Below, piece after piece: positions 26,009-58,936 of a stretch of DNA of 64,000 nucleotides (its first letter is position 1; each line of letters begins with the position of its first letter). The DNA comes from Escherichia coli. GTDB taxonomy: Bacteria; Pseudomonadota; Gammaproteobacteria; Enterobacterales; Enterobacteriaceae. The stretch lies in the NCBI RefSeq assembly GCF_003334335.1, contig NZ_QOWQ01000005.1. One strand, written 5' to 3'. Made by a program: the position numbers and the translations under genes. The notes under the pieces are model-generated. The model worked only from the letters and a program-made list of their open reading frames with translations, was not told the DNA's origin and searched no databases.

Positions 26009-27412
26009 GTGTCACTTTCGCTTTGGCAGCAGTGTCTTGCCCGATTGCAGGATGAGTTACCAGCCACAGAATTCAGTATGTGGATACGCCCATTGCAGGC
26101 GGAACTGAGCGATAACACGCTGGCCCTGTACGCGCCAAACCGTTTTGTCCTCGATTGGGTACGGGACAAGTACCTTAATAATATCAATGGACTGCTAACC
26201 AGTTTCTGCGGAGCGGATGCCCCACAGCTGCGTTTTGAAGTCGGCACCAAACCGGTGACGCAAACGCCACAAGCGGCAGTGACGAGCAACGTCGCGGCCC
26301 CTGCACAGGTGGCGCAAACGCAGCCGCAACGTGCTGCGCCTTCTACGCGCTCAGGTTGGGATAACGTCCCGGCCCCGGCAGAACCGACCTATCGTTCTAA
26401 CGTAAACGTCAAACACACGTTTGATAACTTCGTTGAAGGTAAATCTAACCAACTGGCGCGCGCGGCGGCTCGCCAGGTGGCGGATAACCCTGGCGGTGCC
26501 TATAACCCGTTGTTCCTTTATGGCGGCACGGGTCTGGGTAAAACTCACCTGCTGCATGCGGTGGGTAACGGCATTATGGCGCGCAAGCCGAATGCCAAAG
26601 TGGTTTATATGCACTCCGAGCGCTTTGTTCAGGACATGGTTAAAGCCCTGCAAAACAACGCGATCGAAGAGTTTAAACGCTACTACCGTTCCGTAGATGC
26701 ACTGCTGATCGACGATATTCAGTTTTTTGCTAATAAAGAACGATCTCAGGAAGAGTTTTTCCACACCTTCAACGCCCTGCTGGAAGGTAATCAACAGATC
26801 ATTCTCACCTCGGATCGCTATCCGAAAGAGATCAACGGCGTTGAGGATCGTTTGAAATCCCGCTTCGGTTGGGGACTGACTGTGGCGATCGAACCGCCAG
26901 AGCTGGAAACCCGTGTGGCGATCCTGATGAAAAAGGCCGACGAAAACGACATTCGTTTGCCGGGCGAAGTGGCGTTCTTTATCGCCAAGCGTCTACGATC
27001 TAACGTACGTGAGCTGGAAGGGGCGCTGAACCGCGTCATTGCCAATGCCAACTTTACCGGACGGGCGATCACCATCGACTTCGTGCGTGAGGCGCTGCGC
27101 GACTTGCTGGCATTGCAGGAAAAACTGGTCACCATCGACAATATTCAGAAGACGGTGGCGGAGTACTACAAGATCAAAGTCGCGGATCTCCTTTCCAAGC
27201 GTCGATCCCGCTCGGTGGCGCGTCCGCGCCAGATGGCGATGGCGCTGGCGAAAGAGCTGACTAACCACAGTCTGCCGGAGATTGGCGATGCGTTTGGTGG
27301 CCGTGACCACACGACGGTGCTTCATGCCTGCCGTAAGATCGAGCAGTTGCGTGAAGAGAGCCACGATATCAAAGAAGATTTTTCAAATTTAATCAGAACA
27401 TTGTCATCGTAA
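26009..27412 (+). CDS. dnaA: Chromosomal replication initiator DnaA (467 aa, GTG start)
   Basis: Trimmed to GTG at 26009 giving [30 protein letters not shown]…; AAA+ Walker [11 protein letters not shown]; C-terminal DNA-binding domain. Confidence 0.96.
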
Positions 27413-32054: not shown

Positions 32055-32156
32055 GCCTGATGCGCTACGCTTATCAGGCCTACGAAAATCTTGCAATGTA
32101 TTGAATTTTCATGATTTTGTAGGCCGGATAAGGCGTTCACGCCGCATCCGGCAAGA
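32055..32156. repeat. BIME: two REP units in inverted orientation downstream of gyrB
   Basis: tgcctgatgcgctacgcttatcaggcctac (32055-32084) and gtaggccggataaggcgttcacgccgcatccggcaag (32119-32156). Confidence 0.8.
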
Positions 32157-42215: not shown

Positions 42216-42315
42216 CATCGTAGCCGATGAGGACGCGCCTGATGGGTGTTCTGGCTACCTGACCTGTCCATTGTGGAAGGTCTTACATTCTCGCTGATTT
42301 CAGGAGCTATTGATT

Positions 42316-42729
42316 ATGCGTAACTTTGATTTATCCCCGCTTTACCGTTCTGCTATTGGATTTGACCGTTTGTTTAACCACTTAGAAAACAACCAGAGCC
42401 AGAGTAATGGCGGCTACCCTCCGTATAACGTTGAACTGGTAGACGAAAACCATTACCGCATTGCTATCGCTGTGGCTGGTTTTGCTGAGAGCGAACTGGA
42501 AATTACCGCCCAGGATAATCTGCTGGTGGTGAAAGGTGCTCACGCCGACGAACAAAAAGAGCGCACCTATCTGTACCAGGGCATCGCTGAACGCAACTTT
42601 GAACGCAAATTCCAGTTAGCTGAGAACATTCATGTTCGTGGTGCTAACCTGGTAAATGGTTTGCTGTATATCGATCTCGAACGCGTGATTCCGGAAGCGA
42701 AAAAACCGCGCCGTATCGAAATCAACTAA
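42316..42729 (+). CDS. ibpA: Small heat-shock protein IbpA (alpha-crystallin family, 137 aa)
   Basis: Trimmed to [20 protein letters not shown]…; alpha-crystallin domain. Confidence 0.95.
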
Positions 42730-55816: not shown

Positions 55817-56095
55817 TATCACGGATGCTTTTATAAAAATAATTAGAATAAGTCACTACGCATTCCCATAAATGCGGGAGAGGAATCTATCACATTGATG
55901 AATGTTAGCCAGATATACGCCAGGAATGGGGAATTGTTTAGCGGCAGAATATGTAAACAAAAGCGGCAATAAATGTTGCCGGGAGAGATGGTAGGGCGGA
56001 TAAGATGCGTCAGCATCGCATCCGACACCAACCCGCACGCTAAATATAAAAGGGGAGCGGTTTCCCGCTCCCCTTTGGTGCGACTTGAATCTGAA

Positions 56096-56185
56096 TTACT
56101 TCAGGTATTTCAGAACAGCATCAAGCAGTTGCAGTGCTGCAACAATGAGTTTGAGGATAAGAATGGCGATATCCACCAGGTTCAT
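56096..56185 (-). CDS. tisB: Type I toxin TisB (29-aa SOS-induced membrane peptide), not in ORF track
   Basis: Reverse-complement translation gives MNLVDIAILILKLIVAALQLLDAVLKYLK-stop; followed on the minus strand by a terminator hairpin (about 56050-56078). Confidence 0.93.
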   Translation of the reverse strand: MNLVDIAILILKLIVAALQLLDAVLKYLK

Positions 56186-56421
56186 ACGCGTCTCCTGTGG
56201 TTCAGGAGCACTGCCAGCTGACGTACCTTTCCGCTGCCTGTTGCCAGCTGTTGTGCACGCGGTATCTCAAGGAGAAACGTTGTGCTTGTTGACATAACAC
56301 AGTGTGCTCACGCGGGGTTAAGGCGCTGACGGCACCACCCGTTTCAGCCAGGACTTAGTGCGCCGGGTAACGATGCGGCCCCCGCATAACACATTGCGTA
56401 CAGTGATATTATAGAAGTTTA

Positions 56422-56437
56422 CTGTATAAATAAACAG
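56422..56437. promoter_or_regulatory. LexA box (SOS box) between divergent tisAB and istR
   Basis: CTGTATAAATAAACAG matches the CTGT-N8-ACAG consensus perfectly. Confidence 0.9.
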
Positions 56438-56479
56438 TAATATTTGGACAAAACGCAAACTGTGATCGATACTCAACTA

Positions 56480-56622
56480 TGCACTAAATACGTCAAAATT
56501 CGTGCCGAAATTGCGCGTTCTGCGCGGAACACGTATACTTTCAGTGTTGACATAATACAGTGTGCTTTGCGGTTACCAGCCGCAGGCGACTGACGAAACC
56601 TCGCTCCGGCGGGGTTTTTTGT
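56480..56622 (+). ncRNA. istR: IstR antitoxin sRNA (IstR-2 about 140 nt; IstR-1 about 75 nt from about 56546; shared terminator)
   Basis: Candidate promoters (TTGGAC-18-GATACT; tatact at 56534-56539), 21-nt stretch 56546-56566 nearly identical to 56288-56308 in the tisAB leader, terminator gaaacctcgctccggcggggtttttt; 5' ends approximate. Confidence 0.75.
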
Positions 56623-56749
56623 TATCTGCAATTCAGTACAAAACGTGATCAACCCCTCAATTTTCCCTTGCTGAAAAATTTTCCATTGTCTCCCCTGTAA
56701 AGCTGTGCTTGTATAAATATTGTTAAACACAAAACCAACAAGGTCCCCA

Positions 56750-56848
56750 ATGACTACTTCCATGCTCAACGCAAAACTACTACCAACTGCGCCATCCGCC
56801 GCAGTGGTCGTCGTGCGTGTGGTGGTGGTCGTCGGCAATGCGCCGTAG
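56750..56848 (+). CDS. ivbL: ilvB operon leader peptide IvbL (32 aa), not in ORF track
   Basis: Translation MTTSMLNAKLLPTAPSAAVVVVRVVVVVGNAP-stop, with the Val/Leu-rich control codons. Confidence 0.93.
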   Translation: MTTSMLNAKLLPTAPSAAVVVVRVVVVVGNAP

Positions 56849-56871
56849 GGACTGGAACAACACACGATTCC

Positions 56872-56910
56872 AAAACCCCGCCGGCGCAAACCGGGCGGGG
56901 TTTTTCGTTT
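56872..56910 (+). terminator. ilvBN attenuator terminator
   Basis: aaaaccccgccggcgcaaaccgggcggggtttttcgttt: GC stem plus T-run between ivbL and ilvB. Confidence 0.85.
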
Positions 56911-56953
56911 AAGCACCTCCCGGAAAGTCGGCCCAGAAGAAAAGGACTGGAGC

Positions 56954-58642
56954 ATGGCAAGTTCGGGCACAACATCGACGCGTAAGCGCTTTACCGGCGC
57001 AGAATTTATCGTTCATTTCCTGGAACAGCAGGGCATTAAGATTGTGACAGGCATTCCGGGCGGTTCTATCCTGCCTGTTTACGATGCCTTAAGCCAAAGC
57101 ACGCAAATCCGCCATATTCTGGCCCGTCATGAACAGGGCGCGGGCTTTATCGCTCAGGGAATGGCGCGCACCGACGGTAAACCGGCGGTCTGTATGGCCT
57201 GTAGCGGACCGGGTGCGACTAACCTGGTGACCGCCATTGCCGATGCGCGGCTGGACTCCATCCCGCTGATTTGCATCACTGGTCAGGTTCCCGCCTCGAT
57301 GATCGGCACCGACGCCTTCCAGGAAGTGGACACCTACGGCATCTCTATCCCCATCACCAAACACAACTATCTGGTCAGACATATCGAAGAACTCCCGCAG
57401 GTCATGAGCGATGCCTTCCGCATTGCGCAATCAGGCCGCCCAGGCCCGGTGTGGATAGACATTCCTAAGGATGTGCAAACGGCAGTTTTTGAGATTGAAA
57501 CACAGCCCGCTATGGCAGAAAAAGCCGCCGCCCCCGCCTTTAGCGAAGAAAGCATTCGTGACGCAGCGGCGATGATTAACGCTGCCAAACGCCCGGTGCT
57601 TTATCTGGGCGGCGGTGTGATCAATGCGCCCGCACGGGTGCGTGAACTGGCGGAGAAAGCGCAACTGCCTACCACCATGACTTTAATGGCGCTGGGCATG
57701 TTGCCAAAAGCGCATCCGTTGTCGCTGGGTATGCTGGGGATGCACGGCGTGCGCAGCACCAACTATATTTTGCAGGAGGCGGATTTGTTGATAGTGCTCG
57801 GTGCGCGTTTTGATGACCGGGCGGTTGGCAAAACCGAGCAGTTCTGTCCGAATGCCAAAATCATTCATGTCGATATCGACCGTGCAGAGCTGGGTAAAAT
57901 CAAGCAGCCGCACGTGGCGATTCAGGCGGATGTTGATGACGTGCTGGCGCAGTTGATCCCGCTGGTGGAAGCGCAACCGCGTGCAGAGTGGCACCAGTTG
58001 GTAGCGGATTTGCAGCGTGAGTTTCCGTGTCCAATCCCGAAAGCGTGCGATCCGTTAAGCCATTACGGCCTGATCAACGCCGTTGCCGCCTGTGTCGATG
58101 ACAATGCAATTATCACCACCGACGTTGGTCAGCATCAGATGTGGACCGCGCAAGCTTATCCGCTCAATCGCCCACGCCAGTGGCTGACCTCCGGTGGGCT
58201 GGGCACGATGGGTTTTGGCCTGCCTGCGGCGATTGGCGCTGCGCTGGCGAACCCGGATCGCAAAGTGTTGTGTTTCTCCGGCGACGGCAGCCTGATGATG
58301 AATATTCAGGAGATGGCGACCGCCAGTGAAAATCAGCTGGATGTCAAAATCATTCTGATGAACAACGAAGCGCTGGGGCTGGTGCATCAGCAACAGAGTC
58401 TGTTCTACGAGCAAGGCGTTTTTGCCGCCACCTATCCGGGCAAAATCAACTTTATGCAGATTGCCGCCGGATTCGGCCTCGAAACCTGTGATTTGAATAA
58501 CGAAGCCGATCCGCAGGCTTCATTGCAGGAAATCATCAATCGCCCTGGCCCGGCGCTGATCCATGTGCGCATTGATGCCGAAGAAAAAGTTTACCCGATG
58601 GTGCCGCCAGGTGCGGCGAATACTGAAATGGTGGGGGAATAA
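56954..58642 (+). CDS. ilvB: Acetolactate synthase I large subunit IlvB (562 aa)
   Basis: ThDP-dependent enzyme; ThDP motif GDGS…NN in C-terminal part. Confidence 0.95.
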   Translation: MASSGTTSTRKRFTGAEFIVHFLEQQGIKIVTGIPGGSILPVYDALSQSTQIRHILARHEQGAGFIAQGMARTDGKPAVCMACSGPGATNLVTAIADARLDSIPLICITGQVPASMIGTDAFQEVDTYGISIPITKHNYLVRHIEELPQVMSDAFRIAQSGRPGPVWIDIPKDVQTAVFEIETQPAMAEKAAAPAFSEESIRDAAAMINAAKRPVLYLGGGVINAPARVRELAEKAQLPTTMTLMALGMLPKAHPLSLGMLGMHGVRSTNYILQEADLLIVLGARFDDRAVGKTEQFCPNAKIIHVDIDRAELGKIKQPHVAIQADVDDVLAQLIPLVEAQPRAEWHQLVADLQREFPCPIPKACDPLSHYGLINAVAACVDDNAIITTDVGQHQMWTAQAYPLNRPRQWLTSGGLGTMGFGLPAAIGAALANPDRKVLCFSGDGSLMMNIQEMATASENQLDVKIILMNNEALGLVHQQQSLFYEQGVFAATYPGKINFMQIAAGFGLETCDLNNEADPQASLQEIINRPGPALIHVRIDAEEKVYPMVPPGAANTEMVGE

Positions 58643-58645
58643 GCC

Positions 58646-58936
58646 ATGCAAAACACAACTCATGACAACGTAATTCTGGAGCTCACCGTTCGCAACCATC
58701 CGGGCGTAATGACCCACGTTTGTGGCCTTTTTGCCCGCCGCGCTTTTAACGTTGAAGGCATTCTTTGTCTGCCGATTCAGGACAGCGACAAAAGCCATAT
58801 CTGGCTACTGGTCAATGACGACCAGCGTCTGGAGCAGATGATAAGCCAAATCGATAAGCTGGAAGATGTCGTGAAAGTGCAGCGTAATCAGTCCGATCCG
58901 ACGATGTTTAACAAGATCGCGGTGTTTTTTCAGTAA
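58646..58936 (+). CDS. ilvN: Acetolactate synthase I small regulatory subunit IlvN (96 aa)
   Basis: ACT-domain small subunit ([39 protein letters not shown]…). Confidence 0.93.

Follow-up and report, generated by a model that had tools for sequence, protein, structure and literature searches.

Anatomy and conservation of the ivbL leader-peptide attenuator upstream of ilvBN in Escherichia coli

Our analysis shows that the region upstream of ilvB, in a stretch of 64,000 nt of Escherichia coli DNA (hereafter the window), is almost certainly the ivbL-ilvBN ribosome-mediated transcription attenuator of this species. The element is the known E. coli ivbL leader-peptide attenuator of ilvBN, and as such it is real, ordinary and already known. 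We show the identity of its sequence, its anatomy, the mutually exclusive pairings of its RNA, the dependence of these pairings on ribosome position in silico, and its conservation. Previous studies that cite Friden, Newman and Freundlich 1982 described attenuation of ilvBN via a leader of 32 residues (PMC6123439, PMC3783181), and attenuation control is likewise reported in PMC11347164. A GFP reporter placed behind ivbL was repressed by valine and leucine, and not by six other amino acids coded in the leader (PMC11187965), a response that fits the lack of Ile codons described below.

The leader is an open reading frame of 32 sense codons preceded by an SD-like AAGG 6 nt 5' of its ATG (Table 1). 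Nine codons specify Val (19-22 and 24-28, separated by Arg23) and three specify Leu (6, 10 and 11), and there is no Ile among the 32. The list of open reading frames for the window gave this frame solely as a 42-aa version starting at TTG, which a default cut-off of 60 aa would hide. The identity of the frame is nevertheless clear. All 701 bases from 56400 to 57100 are those of E. coli K-12 MG1655 (100%), as they are of many other strains, and RefSeq annotates on exactly these bases of MG1655 a coding sequence named "ivbL: ilvB operon leader peptide IvbL", with tisB and emrD before it and ilvB, ilvN and uhpA after it. The peptide also passes the IvbL equivalog of NCBIfam (NF007579, 78.7 bits against a cutoff of 60), with residues 1-32 aligned on positions 1-32 of the 32 in the profile. 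The earlier note, made from the letters of the window, was thus right to describe a Val- and Leu-rich leader of 32 codons and to name it ivbL upstream of ilvB. It also proposed attenuation by branched-chain aminoacyl-tRNA levels. This part stands for Val and Leu but must be narrowed for Ile: since the leader lacks Ile codons, the sensor reads Val and Leu rather than all branched-chain amino acids. The Leu-sensing role of the CUA CUA codons comes from the literature (PMC3783181, PMC11187965).

The leader ends 105 nt before the ATG of ilvB, on the same strand, and we found the same arrangement in 36 other loci. When the 188-nt leader was searched alone against 5426 complete E. coli genomes, 5419 of them had it as a single copy at >=95% identity, and a local search found no second copy of the region inside the window. 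The Rfam scan at gathering thresholds returned no family for the leader, T-box included. At E <= 10 it gave only terminator-like fragments on the leader, the best leader family being Leu_leader with 12.1 bits against a threshold of 50. This missing model is a curation gap, with no sign of novelty and no bearing on the mechanism. A match to STnc180, an enterobacterial sRNA, spans the whole leader (56710-56912, plus strand); it scores 12.2 bits (E = 4.2), far short of the threshold of 50, and is probably due to chance.

Table 1. Coordinates of the leader, its control signals and the genes that follow (positions in the window)
Feature	Position	Strand	Evidence or remark
CRP-like site CGTGATCAACCCCTCA, candidate, upstream of the ilvB promoter	56644..56659	+	3 mismatches to TGTGA-N6-TCACA
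Promoter region: -35-like TTGTCT (56686-91), -10-like TATAAA (56712-17)	56686..56717	+	conserved blocks in the upstream alignment
Leader 5' UTR, CA-rich, with SD-like AAGG at 56740-43	56725..56749	+	read from sequence
ivbL leader ORF: ATG at 56750, TAG at 56846-56848	56750..56848	+	32 sense codons, peptide MTTSMLNAKLLPTAPSAAVVVVRVVVVVGNAP
Tandem Leu control codons CUA CUA (codons 10-11)	56777..56782	+	nucleotide-invariant in 35/35 aligned leaders
Hairpin H1 (ACUGCG...CGCAGU)	56786..56805	+	RNAalifold; -7.1 kcal/mol
Val control codons: Val19-22, Arg23, Val24-28	56804..56833	+	third positions almost invariant across genera
A:B hairpin, candidate protector/anti-antiterminator	56812..56845	+	RNAalifold consensus; -10.3 kcal/mol
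Antiterminator B:C, three-part	56839..56888	+	-21.9 kcal/mol fold; predicted in 35/35 species
Intrinsic terminator (attenuator): stem 56872-56904, U-tract 56901-05, then CGUUU	56872..56910	+	-21.6 kcal/mol
ilvB, ATG at 56954	56954..58642	+	NCBIfam NF006016, 1086.8 bits (cutoff 870); RefSeq
ilvN, acetolactate synthase I small subunit	58646..58936	+	NCBIfam NF006036, 185.8 bits (cutoff 128); RefSeq

The terminator consists of a 5' arm AAAACCCCGCCGG (56872-84), a loop CGCAAA (56885-90) and a 3' arm CCGGGCGGGGUUUUU (56891-905), which form 13 pairs with one bulged G. A strong terminator hairpin 23 nt past the stop had been noticed earlier, and this is what we find: the hairpin (56872-56905, -21.6 kcal/mol) begins 23 nt after the ivbL stop if one counts to the A-tract at the base of the stem, and 27 nt after it if one counts to the G+C stem. 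It ends 49 nt upstream of ilvB. The consensus terminator scan did not call the ivbL attenuator, because the scan disallows the 1-nt bulge present in this stem. Since the bulge accounts for the miss, we rejected the silence of the scan as evidence of absence. The leader RNA is also more stable than expected from its composition (z = -3.5, that is, 3.5 standard deviations more stable than dinucleotide shuffles). In the alignment of 35 sequences described below, 94.9% of the cells of the terminator are paired and 10 of its 13 pairs are invariant, with energies that range from -19.7 to -25.1 kcal/mol across all 35 species. Being almost invariant, these pairs offer no covariation information.

The earlier note made its reading depend on the existence of an alternative pairing between the leader and the terminator stem. 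We sought this antiterminator by folding a nascent transcript that extends as far as the loop of the terminator and still lacks the 3' arm. The alternative pairing exists, and has three parts: an outer stem of UGCGCCG (56839-45, the last base of Asn30 followed by Ala31 and Pro32) with CGGCGCA (56882-88), a middle helix of GGG (56848-50) with CCC (56877-79), and an inner hairpin of 56853-58 with 56866-72. Its 5' side (56839-56858) is made of the last codons of the leader and the spacer, and its partner (56866-56888) includes the 5' arm and the loop of the terminator. The 5' arm of the antiterminator thus overlaps the last three codons of ivbL and its stop codon. With -21.9 kcal/mol, the antiterminator is about as strong as the terminator (-21.6 kcal/mol), and the two are mutually exclusive because both use positions 56872-88. 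We kept the terminator arm fixed and shuffled the 36 nt upstream of it 2000 times while preserving dinucleotides. The shuffled sequences had a mean of -10.6 +/- 2.5 kcal/mol and just 1 of the 2000 was as stable as the observed antiterminator. The number of paired arm bases was not discriminating in this test, since half of the shuffles equalled the observed count; energy alone discriminates.

Two further hairpins lie within the coding part of the leader. Hairpin H1 may act as a pause hairpin or as an upstream alternative hairpin. The A:B hairpin pairs CGUGCGUGU, in the codons of Val22-Arg23-Val24 (56812-20), with AAUGCGCCG (56838-45), and therefore vies with the antiterminator for the segment that we call B. 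This conserved hairpin is the best candidate for a protector that would enforce termination when the leader is not translated. A larger structure of the E. coli MFE fold, in which the N-terminal codons pair with the Val codons (-36.7 kcal/mol), was also considered for this role and rejected: 77% of its cells are paired in the alignment, with some helices at 51-67%. When the untranslated nascent leader is folded, B:C is predicted (P = 1.0) and A:B is not, and in the untranslated full leader the terminator state is favored at equilibrium by only 4 kcal/mol.

We scanned one genome per species with the back-translated Val core VVVVRVVVVV, which lies outside the stems of the antiterminator and terminator. 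There were 120 matches. Of these, 36 lie 125-210 nt upstream of a homologue of IlvB that is 64-98% identical to the query, and the remaining ones are chance matches in G+C-rich genomes. The 36 loci belong to Enterobacterales and come from Escherichia, Citrobacter, Enterobacter, Klebsiella, Kluyvera, Leclercia and Pluralibacter, and further from Cedecea, Serratia, Yersinia, Pectobacterium, Brenneria, Dickeya and Morganella. Our alignment includes 35 distinct leaders, the one of the window and 34 from the 36 other loci. Because this set was picked by the pattern of the Val run, the conservation of the run is partly there by construction. All 35 leaders retain the open reading frame, the terminator, the antiterminator and an upstream hairpin that competes for segment B. 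The leaders have in common a core of 32 codons, in which the N-terminal half varies, an LL.TA motif recurs and the tail AAVVVVRVVVVVGNAP is almost invariant. The frame starts with ATG or GTG at one alignment column, and the AGG of the SD is nearly invariant.

In the antiterminator 87% of the cells are paired, and sliding the partners by 1-3 columns lowers this to 32-56%. The two outer helices, paired in about 95% of the cells, are nearly invariant and for this reason give no covariation evidence. The inner hairpin, on the other hand, carries compensatory replacements, with U-A for A-U in 7 sequences, A-U for G-C in 3 and G-C for U-A in 1. Refolding without the alignment recovered the same three-part antiterminator in all 35 species, with -17.8 to -22.9 kcal/mol. 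H1 and A:B taken together have 98.8% of their cells paired, against 13-65% in slid controls. One pair of H1 (columns 72:90), formed by the synonymous positions of Thr13 and Ala18, alternates between C-G (24 sequences) and U-A (10), and three pairs of A:B vary on one side yet stay paired. Third codon positions of the leader hardly vary: 11 of 17 are fully invariant, compared with 4 of 82 over the first part of ilvB from these genomes. Just two of the leader positions vary freely, and they are those of the covarying pair of H1.

Some leaders show variations of this plan. GTG apparently starts the leader at the ATG column in nine of them (L012, L028, L037, L038, L041, L048, L059, L061 and L109), from Yersinia, Pectobacterium, Serratia, Brenneria, Morganella, Dickeya and one further locus. 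In all of these but L037, L041 and L061, the stop is UAA followed by CGGG, in place of UAG followed by GGG, and the middle helix of the antiterminator gains one C-G pair. In their terminators the loop is a GCCA or GCAA tetraloop, and the bulged base is A rather than G.

We walked a ribosome along the leader in silico, folding only the RNA ahead of it. Its leading edge was placed 13 or 16 nt downstream of where the A-site codon begins. The probability of B:C is close to 1 when codons 1-15 or Val20-26 occupy the A-site, and close to 0 from codon 28 to the stop. The dip at codons 16-19 corresponds to a second antiterminator pairing, in which segment A, together with the G-rich codons for Val, binds the terminator arm even more fully than the canonical B:C. 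Overall, the 5' arm of the terminator core is sequestered with P of 0.7-0.9 with the A-site at codons 12-27; for codons 28 and 29 the values are 0.5 and 0.33, and for the stop 0.01. An antiterminator is thus predicted to form with the ribosome on codons 1-27 and to be blocked by a ribosome at the stop. Given this dependence on ribosome position, the readout in the model is whether the ribosome has reached the last few codons when the polymerase transcribes 56872-56905.

The switch does not appear when the whole transcript is folded. The full-length MFE structure under any 30-nt ribosome mask was always the terminator, and when the energies of forced terminator and forced antiterminator were compared on the full-length leader, the former was favored by 1-6 kcal/mol in every ribosome state tested, so that these energies did not tell the states apart. 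Masked folds of whole transcripts from the other species gave erratic counts, as the MFE pairs RNA across the masked ribosome, and were replaced by folds of the RNA ahead of the ribosome. The full-length masked folds are uninformative because attenuation is decided during RNA synthesis. Since equilibrium folding fails to reproduce the switch, the decision must be kinetic, not thermodynamic, in line with the textbook model of attenuation; the timing given below is putative.

These elements suggest the following mechanism, with the classical layout of four segments whose pairings would alternate: A in the Val and Arg codons, B in the last codons of the leader, and C and D in the 5' and 3' arms of the terminator. 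RNA polymerase would start about 25 nt upstream of the ATG and a ribosome would begin to translate the 32 codons. When charged Val-tRNA and Leu-tRNA are plentiful, the ribosome would reach the stop and cover segment B (56838-45) and the GGG that follows; segment C would then be left without an upstream partner, the C:D hairpin would form with its U-tract, and transcription would stop before ilvB. When either charged tRNA is scarce, the ribosome would stall at the two CUA codons, 10 and 11, or within codons 19-26 of the Val runs, leaving segment B exposed and able to pair with C once this is made, which would allow read-through into ilvBN. The antiterminator is predicted to be as stable as the terminator and would form first. 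If the leader is not translated, the conserved A:B hairpin would compete for segment B and is the candidate protector that would lead to termination.

The end of the leader raises a further point. All 35 leaders have CCG as their last codon and UAG or UAA as the stop, and most of the peptides end in GNAP. This invariant C-terminal Pro-stop might be selected at the level of the protein for slow release, although we regard this as unlikely. If it were so, slow release after the C-terminal Pro would hold the ribosome on segment B and guarantee that the terminator forms, and the nascent peptide itself, not just its codons, would be part of the timing device. Such selection is inseparable from the constraint on the RNA, because the same bases pair with segments A and C.

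Upstream of the leader, the alignment shows two conserved blocks, TTGT and TGT-ATAAAT (the latter at 56710-56718), which include the -35-like and -10-like elements of the putative promoter. The 20 nt between these elements are atypical for sigma-70, and the consensus promoter scan did not call the blocks at 56686-56717. Transcription probably starts at around 56722-56726. The candidate CRP-like site further upstream was not above chance in a consensus search of the whole window. Yet, the half-site GTGAT (56645-49) does not vary among 30 aligned upstream regions, and in some species the CRP site comes near the consensus. Because of this phylogenetic footprint we keep the site as a candidate. 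The site may be functional here, and the footprint agrees with the cAMP control of ilvB that Friden et al. 1982 name in their title (cited in PMC6123439).

The leader is also the target of post-transcriptional control. Its 5' UTR was reported as a target of the sRNA GcvB (PMC9299463, PMC11347164), which represses fusions of ivbL and ilvB via its R1 region and is predicted to bind CA-rich sites in the ivbL 5' UTR and in the ivbL-ilvB spacer (PMC9299463). The same study reported translational fusions of ivbL (PMC9299463). RNase E cleaves between ivbL and ilvB and lowers ivbL RNA, an effect that GcvB counteracts (PMC11347164). Two CA-rich tracts in the window, 56725-43 and 56857-65 (the latter in the loop of the inner hairpin of the antiterminator), fit the reported R1 targets (PMC9299463). 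In the full-length MFE, GGUCCC near the SD (56742-47) pairs with GGGACU (56848-53), which matches the occluding structure speculated in PMC11347164.

These layers might be thought sufficient to explain the conservation of the leader, which would then be mainly a platform for control by GcvB and RNase E, with conserved sRNA target and cleavage sites. The repression through R1 (PMC9299463), the effect of RNase E (PMC11347164) and the position of the CA-rich tracts speak for it. We nonetheless find it very improbable: such a platform leaves unexplained the runs of Val and Leu codons, the terminator and the conserved exclusive pairings, the papers on GcvB themselves call ivbL an attenuator, and GcvB and RNase E are better seen as an additional layer. 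It is even harder to believe that a chance short reading frame happens to precede an ordinary terminator, or signal of transcript end, uncoupled from translation, and we give this reading an extremely low probability. Many chance short frames do occur in this region, and G+C-rich arms pair easily, to the point that half of the shuffles gave the arm of the terminator core as many upstream partners as the real sequence. But the frame, its length, CUA CUA and the Val runs (these partly by construction of the set) persist across genera in which IlvB has diverged by up to 36%. The frozen synonymous sites, the energy attained by 1 in 2000 shuffles, the match to the IvbL model and the experimental reports (PMC11187965) also contradict it.

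A ribosome is not the only conceivable sensor. In other phyla, operons for branched-chain amino acids are under T-box or protein-mediated attenuation, with T-boxes at the ilvB operons of Gram-positive bacteria. An attenuator from Staphylococcus aureus is described in PMC5794164. By analogy, a trans-acting factor, be it uncharged tRNA as in the T-box or an RNA-binding protein, could act on the leader RNA without a translating ribosome. The probability of this is practically nil, because no T-box or other cis-regulatory Rfam family matched even at E <= 10, the structured segments lie in or beside a conserved translated frame, and the stop codon falls exactly on the 5' arm of the antiterminator.

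The neighborhood of the attenuator has some features of its own. Just upstream lies the tisB/istR type I toxin-antitoxin locus, with the TisB frame (29 aa) at 56096-56185 on the minus strand, a LexA-box-like CTGTATAAATAAACAG at 56422-56437, and the IstR sRNA at 56491-56620 on the plus strand (Rfam RF01400, 150 bits), whose terminator (56595-56618) ends about 100 nt before the ilvB promoter. Per E. coli genome, the 701-bp query matched at a median of 2 places, and only 4356 of 5424 genomes had it in one piece. As this query is often split and the 188-nt leader is single-copy in 5419 genomes, the tisB-istR side (56400-56724) appears, from these matches, to be variable, split or partly repeated among strains. 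Between emrD and tisB, the short frame MMNVSQIYARNGELFSGRICKQKRQ (about 55898-55972, plus strand) corresponds to YsdE, a small protein of 24 residues in RefSeq. Elsewhere in the window, Rfam matches above the gathering score were AsdA, the antisense RNA of the dnaA mRNA (26519-26599, minus strand), the ES036/CssrF sRNA (32076-32118, minus strand) and a ROSE_2 RNA thermometer (42250-42322, plus strand).

The discovery value of this work is small: the sequence and its explanation date from 1982, RefSeq annotates the element, and it already serves as a Val/Leu biosensor. The case is of use as a positive control, in which a true leader-peptide attenuator was recognized, with exact coordinates, from the raw letters. 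Our comparison of species adds a compact map of the conserved parts of the element in Enterobacterales (terminator, three-part antiterminator, A:B, CUA CUA and frozen synonymous sites), and the analysis also shows that Rfam lacks a model for the ivbL leader.

The element is that of E. coli K-12 ivbL-ilvBN (Friden, Newman and Freundlich 1982, PNAS 79:6156, cited in PMC6123439 and PMC3783181), and shows no difference from it: the two share the 701 bp, in which the leader, the terminator and the first part of ilvB lie, the 32-residue peptide, the annotation and the context emrD-tisB/istR-ivbL-ilvBN-uhpA. The closest parallel is ilvL of the E. coli ilvGMEDA operon, also a branched-chain-rich leader of 32 residues with an intrinsic terminator and alternative pairings (PMC6123439). 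Unlike ivbL, ilvL is multivalent, with Ile, Leu and Val codons (15 of 32), whereas ivbL has 9 Val and 3 Leu codons and an unrelated sequence. The leaders trpL, hisL, leuL, thrL and pheL follow the same logic, with an open reading frame of control codons, exclusive hairpins and the position of the ribosome as sensor (PMC1183508), but they differ in codons and RNA, and several have Rfam models, none of which matches ivbL. Leader-peptide control of acetolactate synthase genes is also found in the three-hairpin attenuator of ilvBNC in Corynebacterium glutamicum (PMC11857589), and the Leu-rich attenuator peptide of S. aureus similarly provides branched-chain-responsive attenuation of such genes (PMC5794164). 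Both belong to different phyla, and differ from ivbL in operon composition, peptides and hairpin layout; kinship at the sequence level is not expected.
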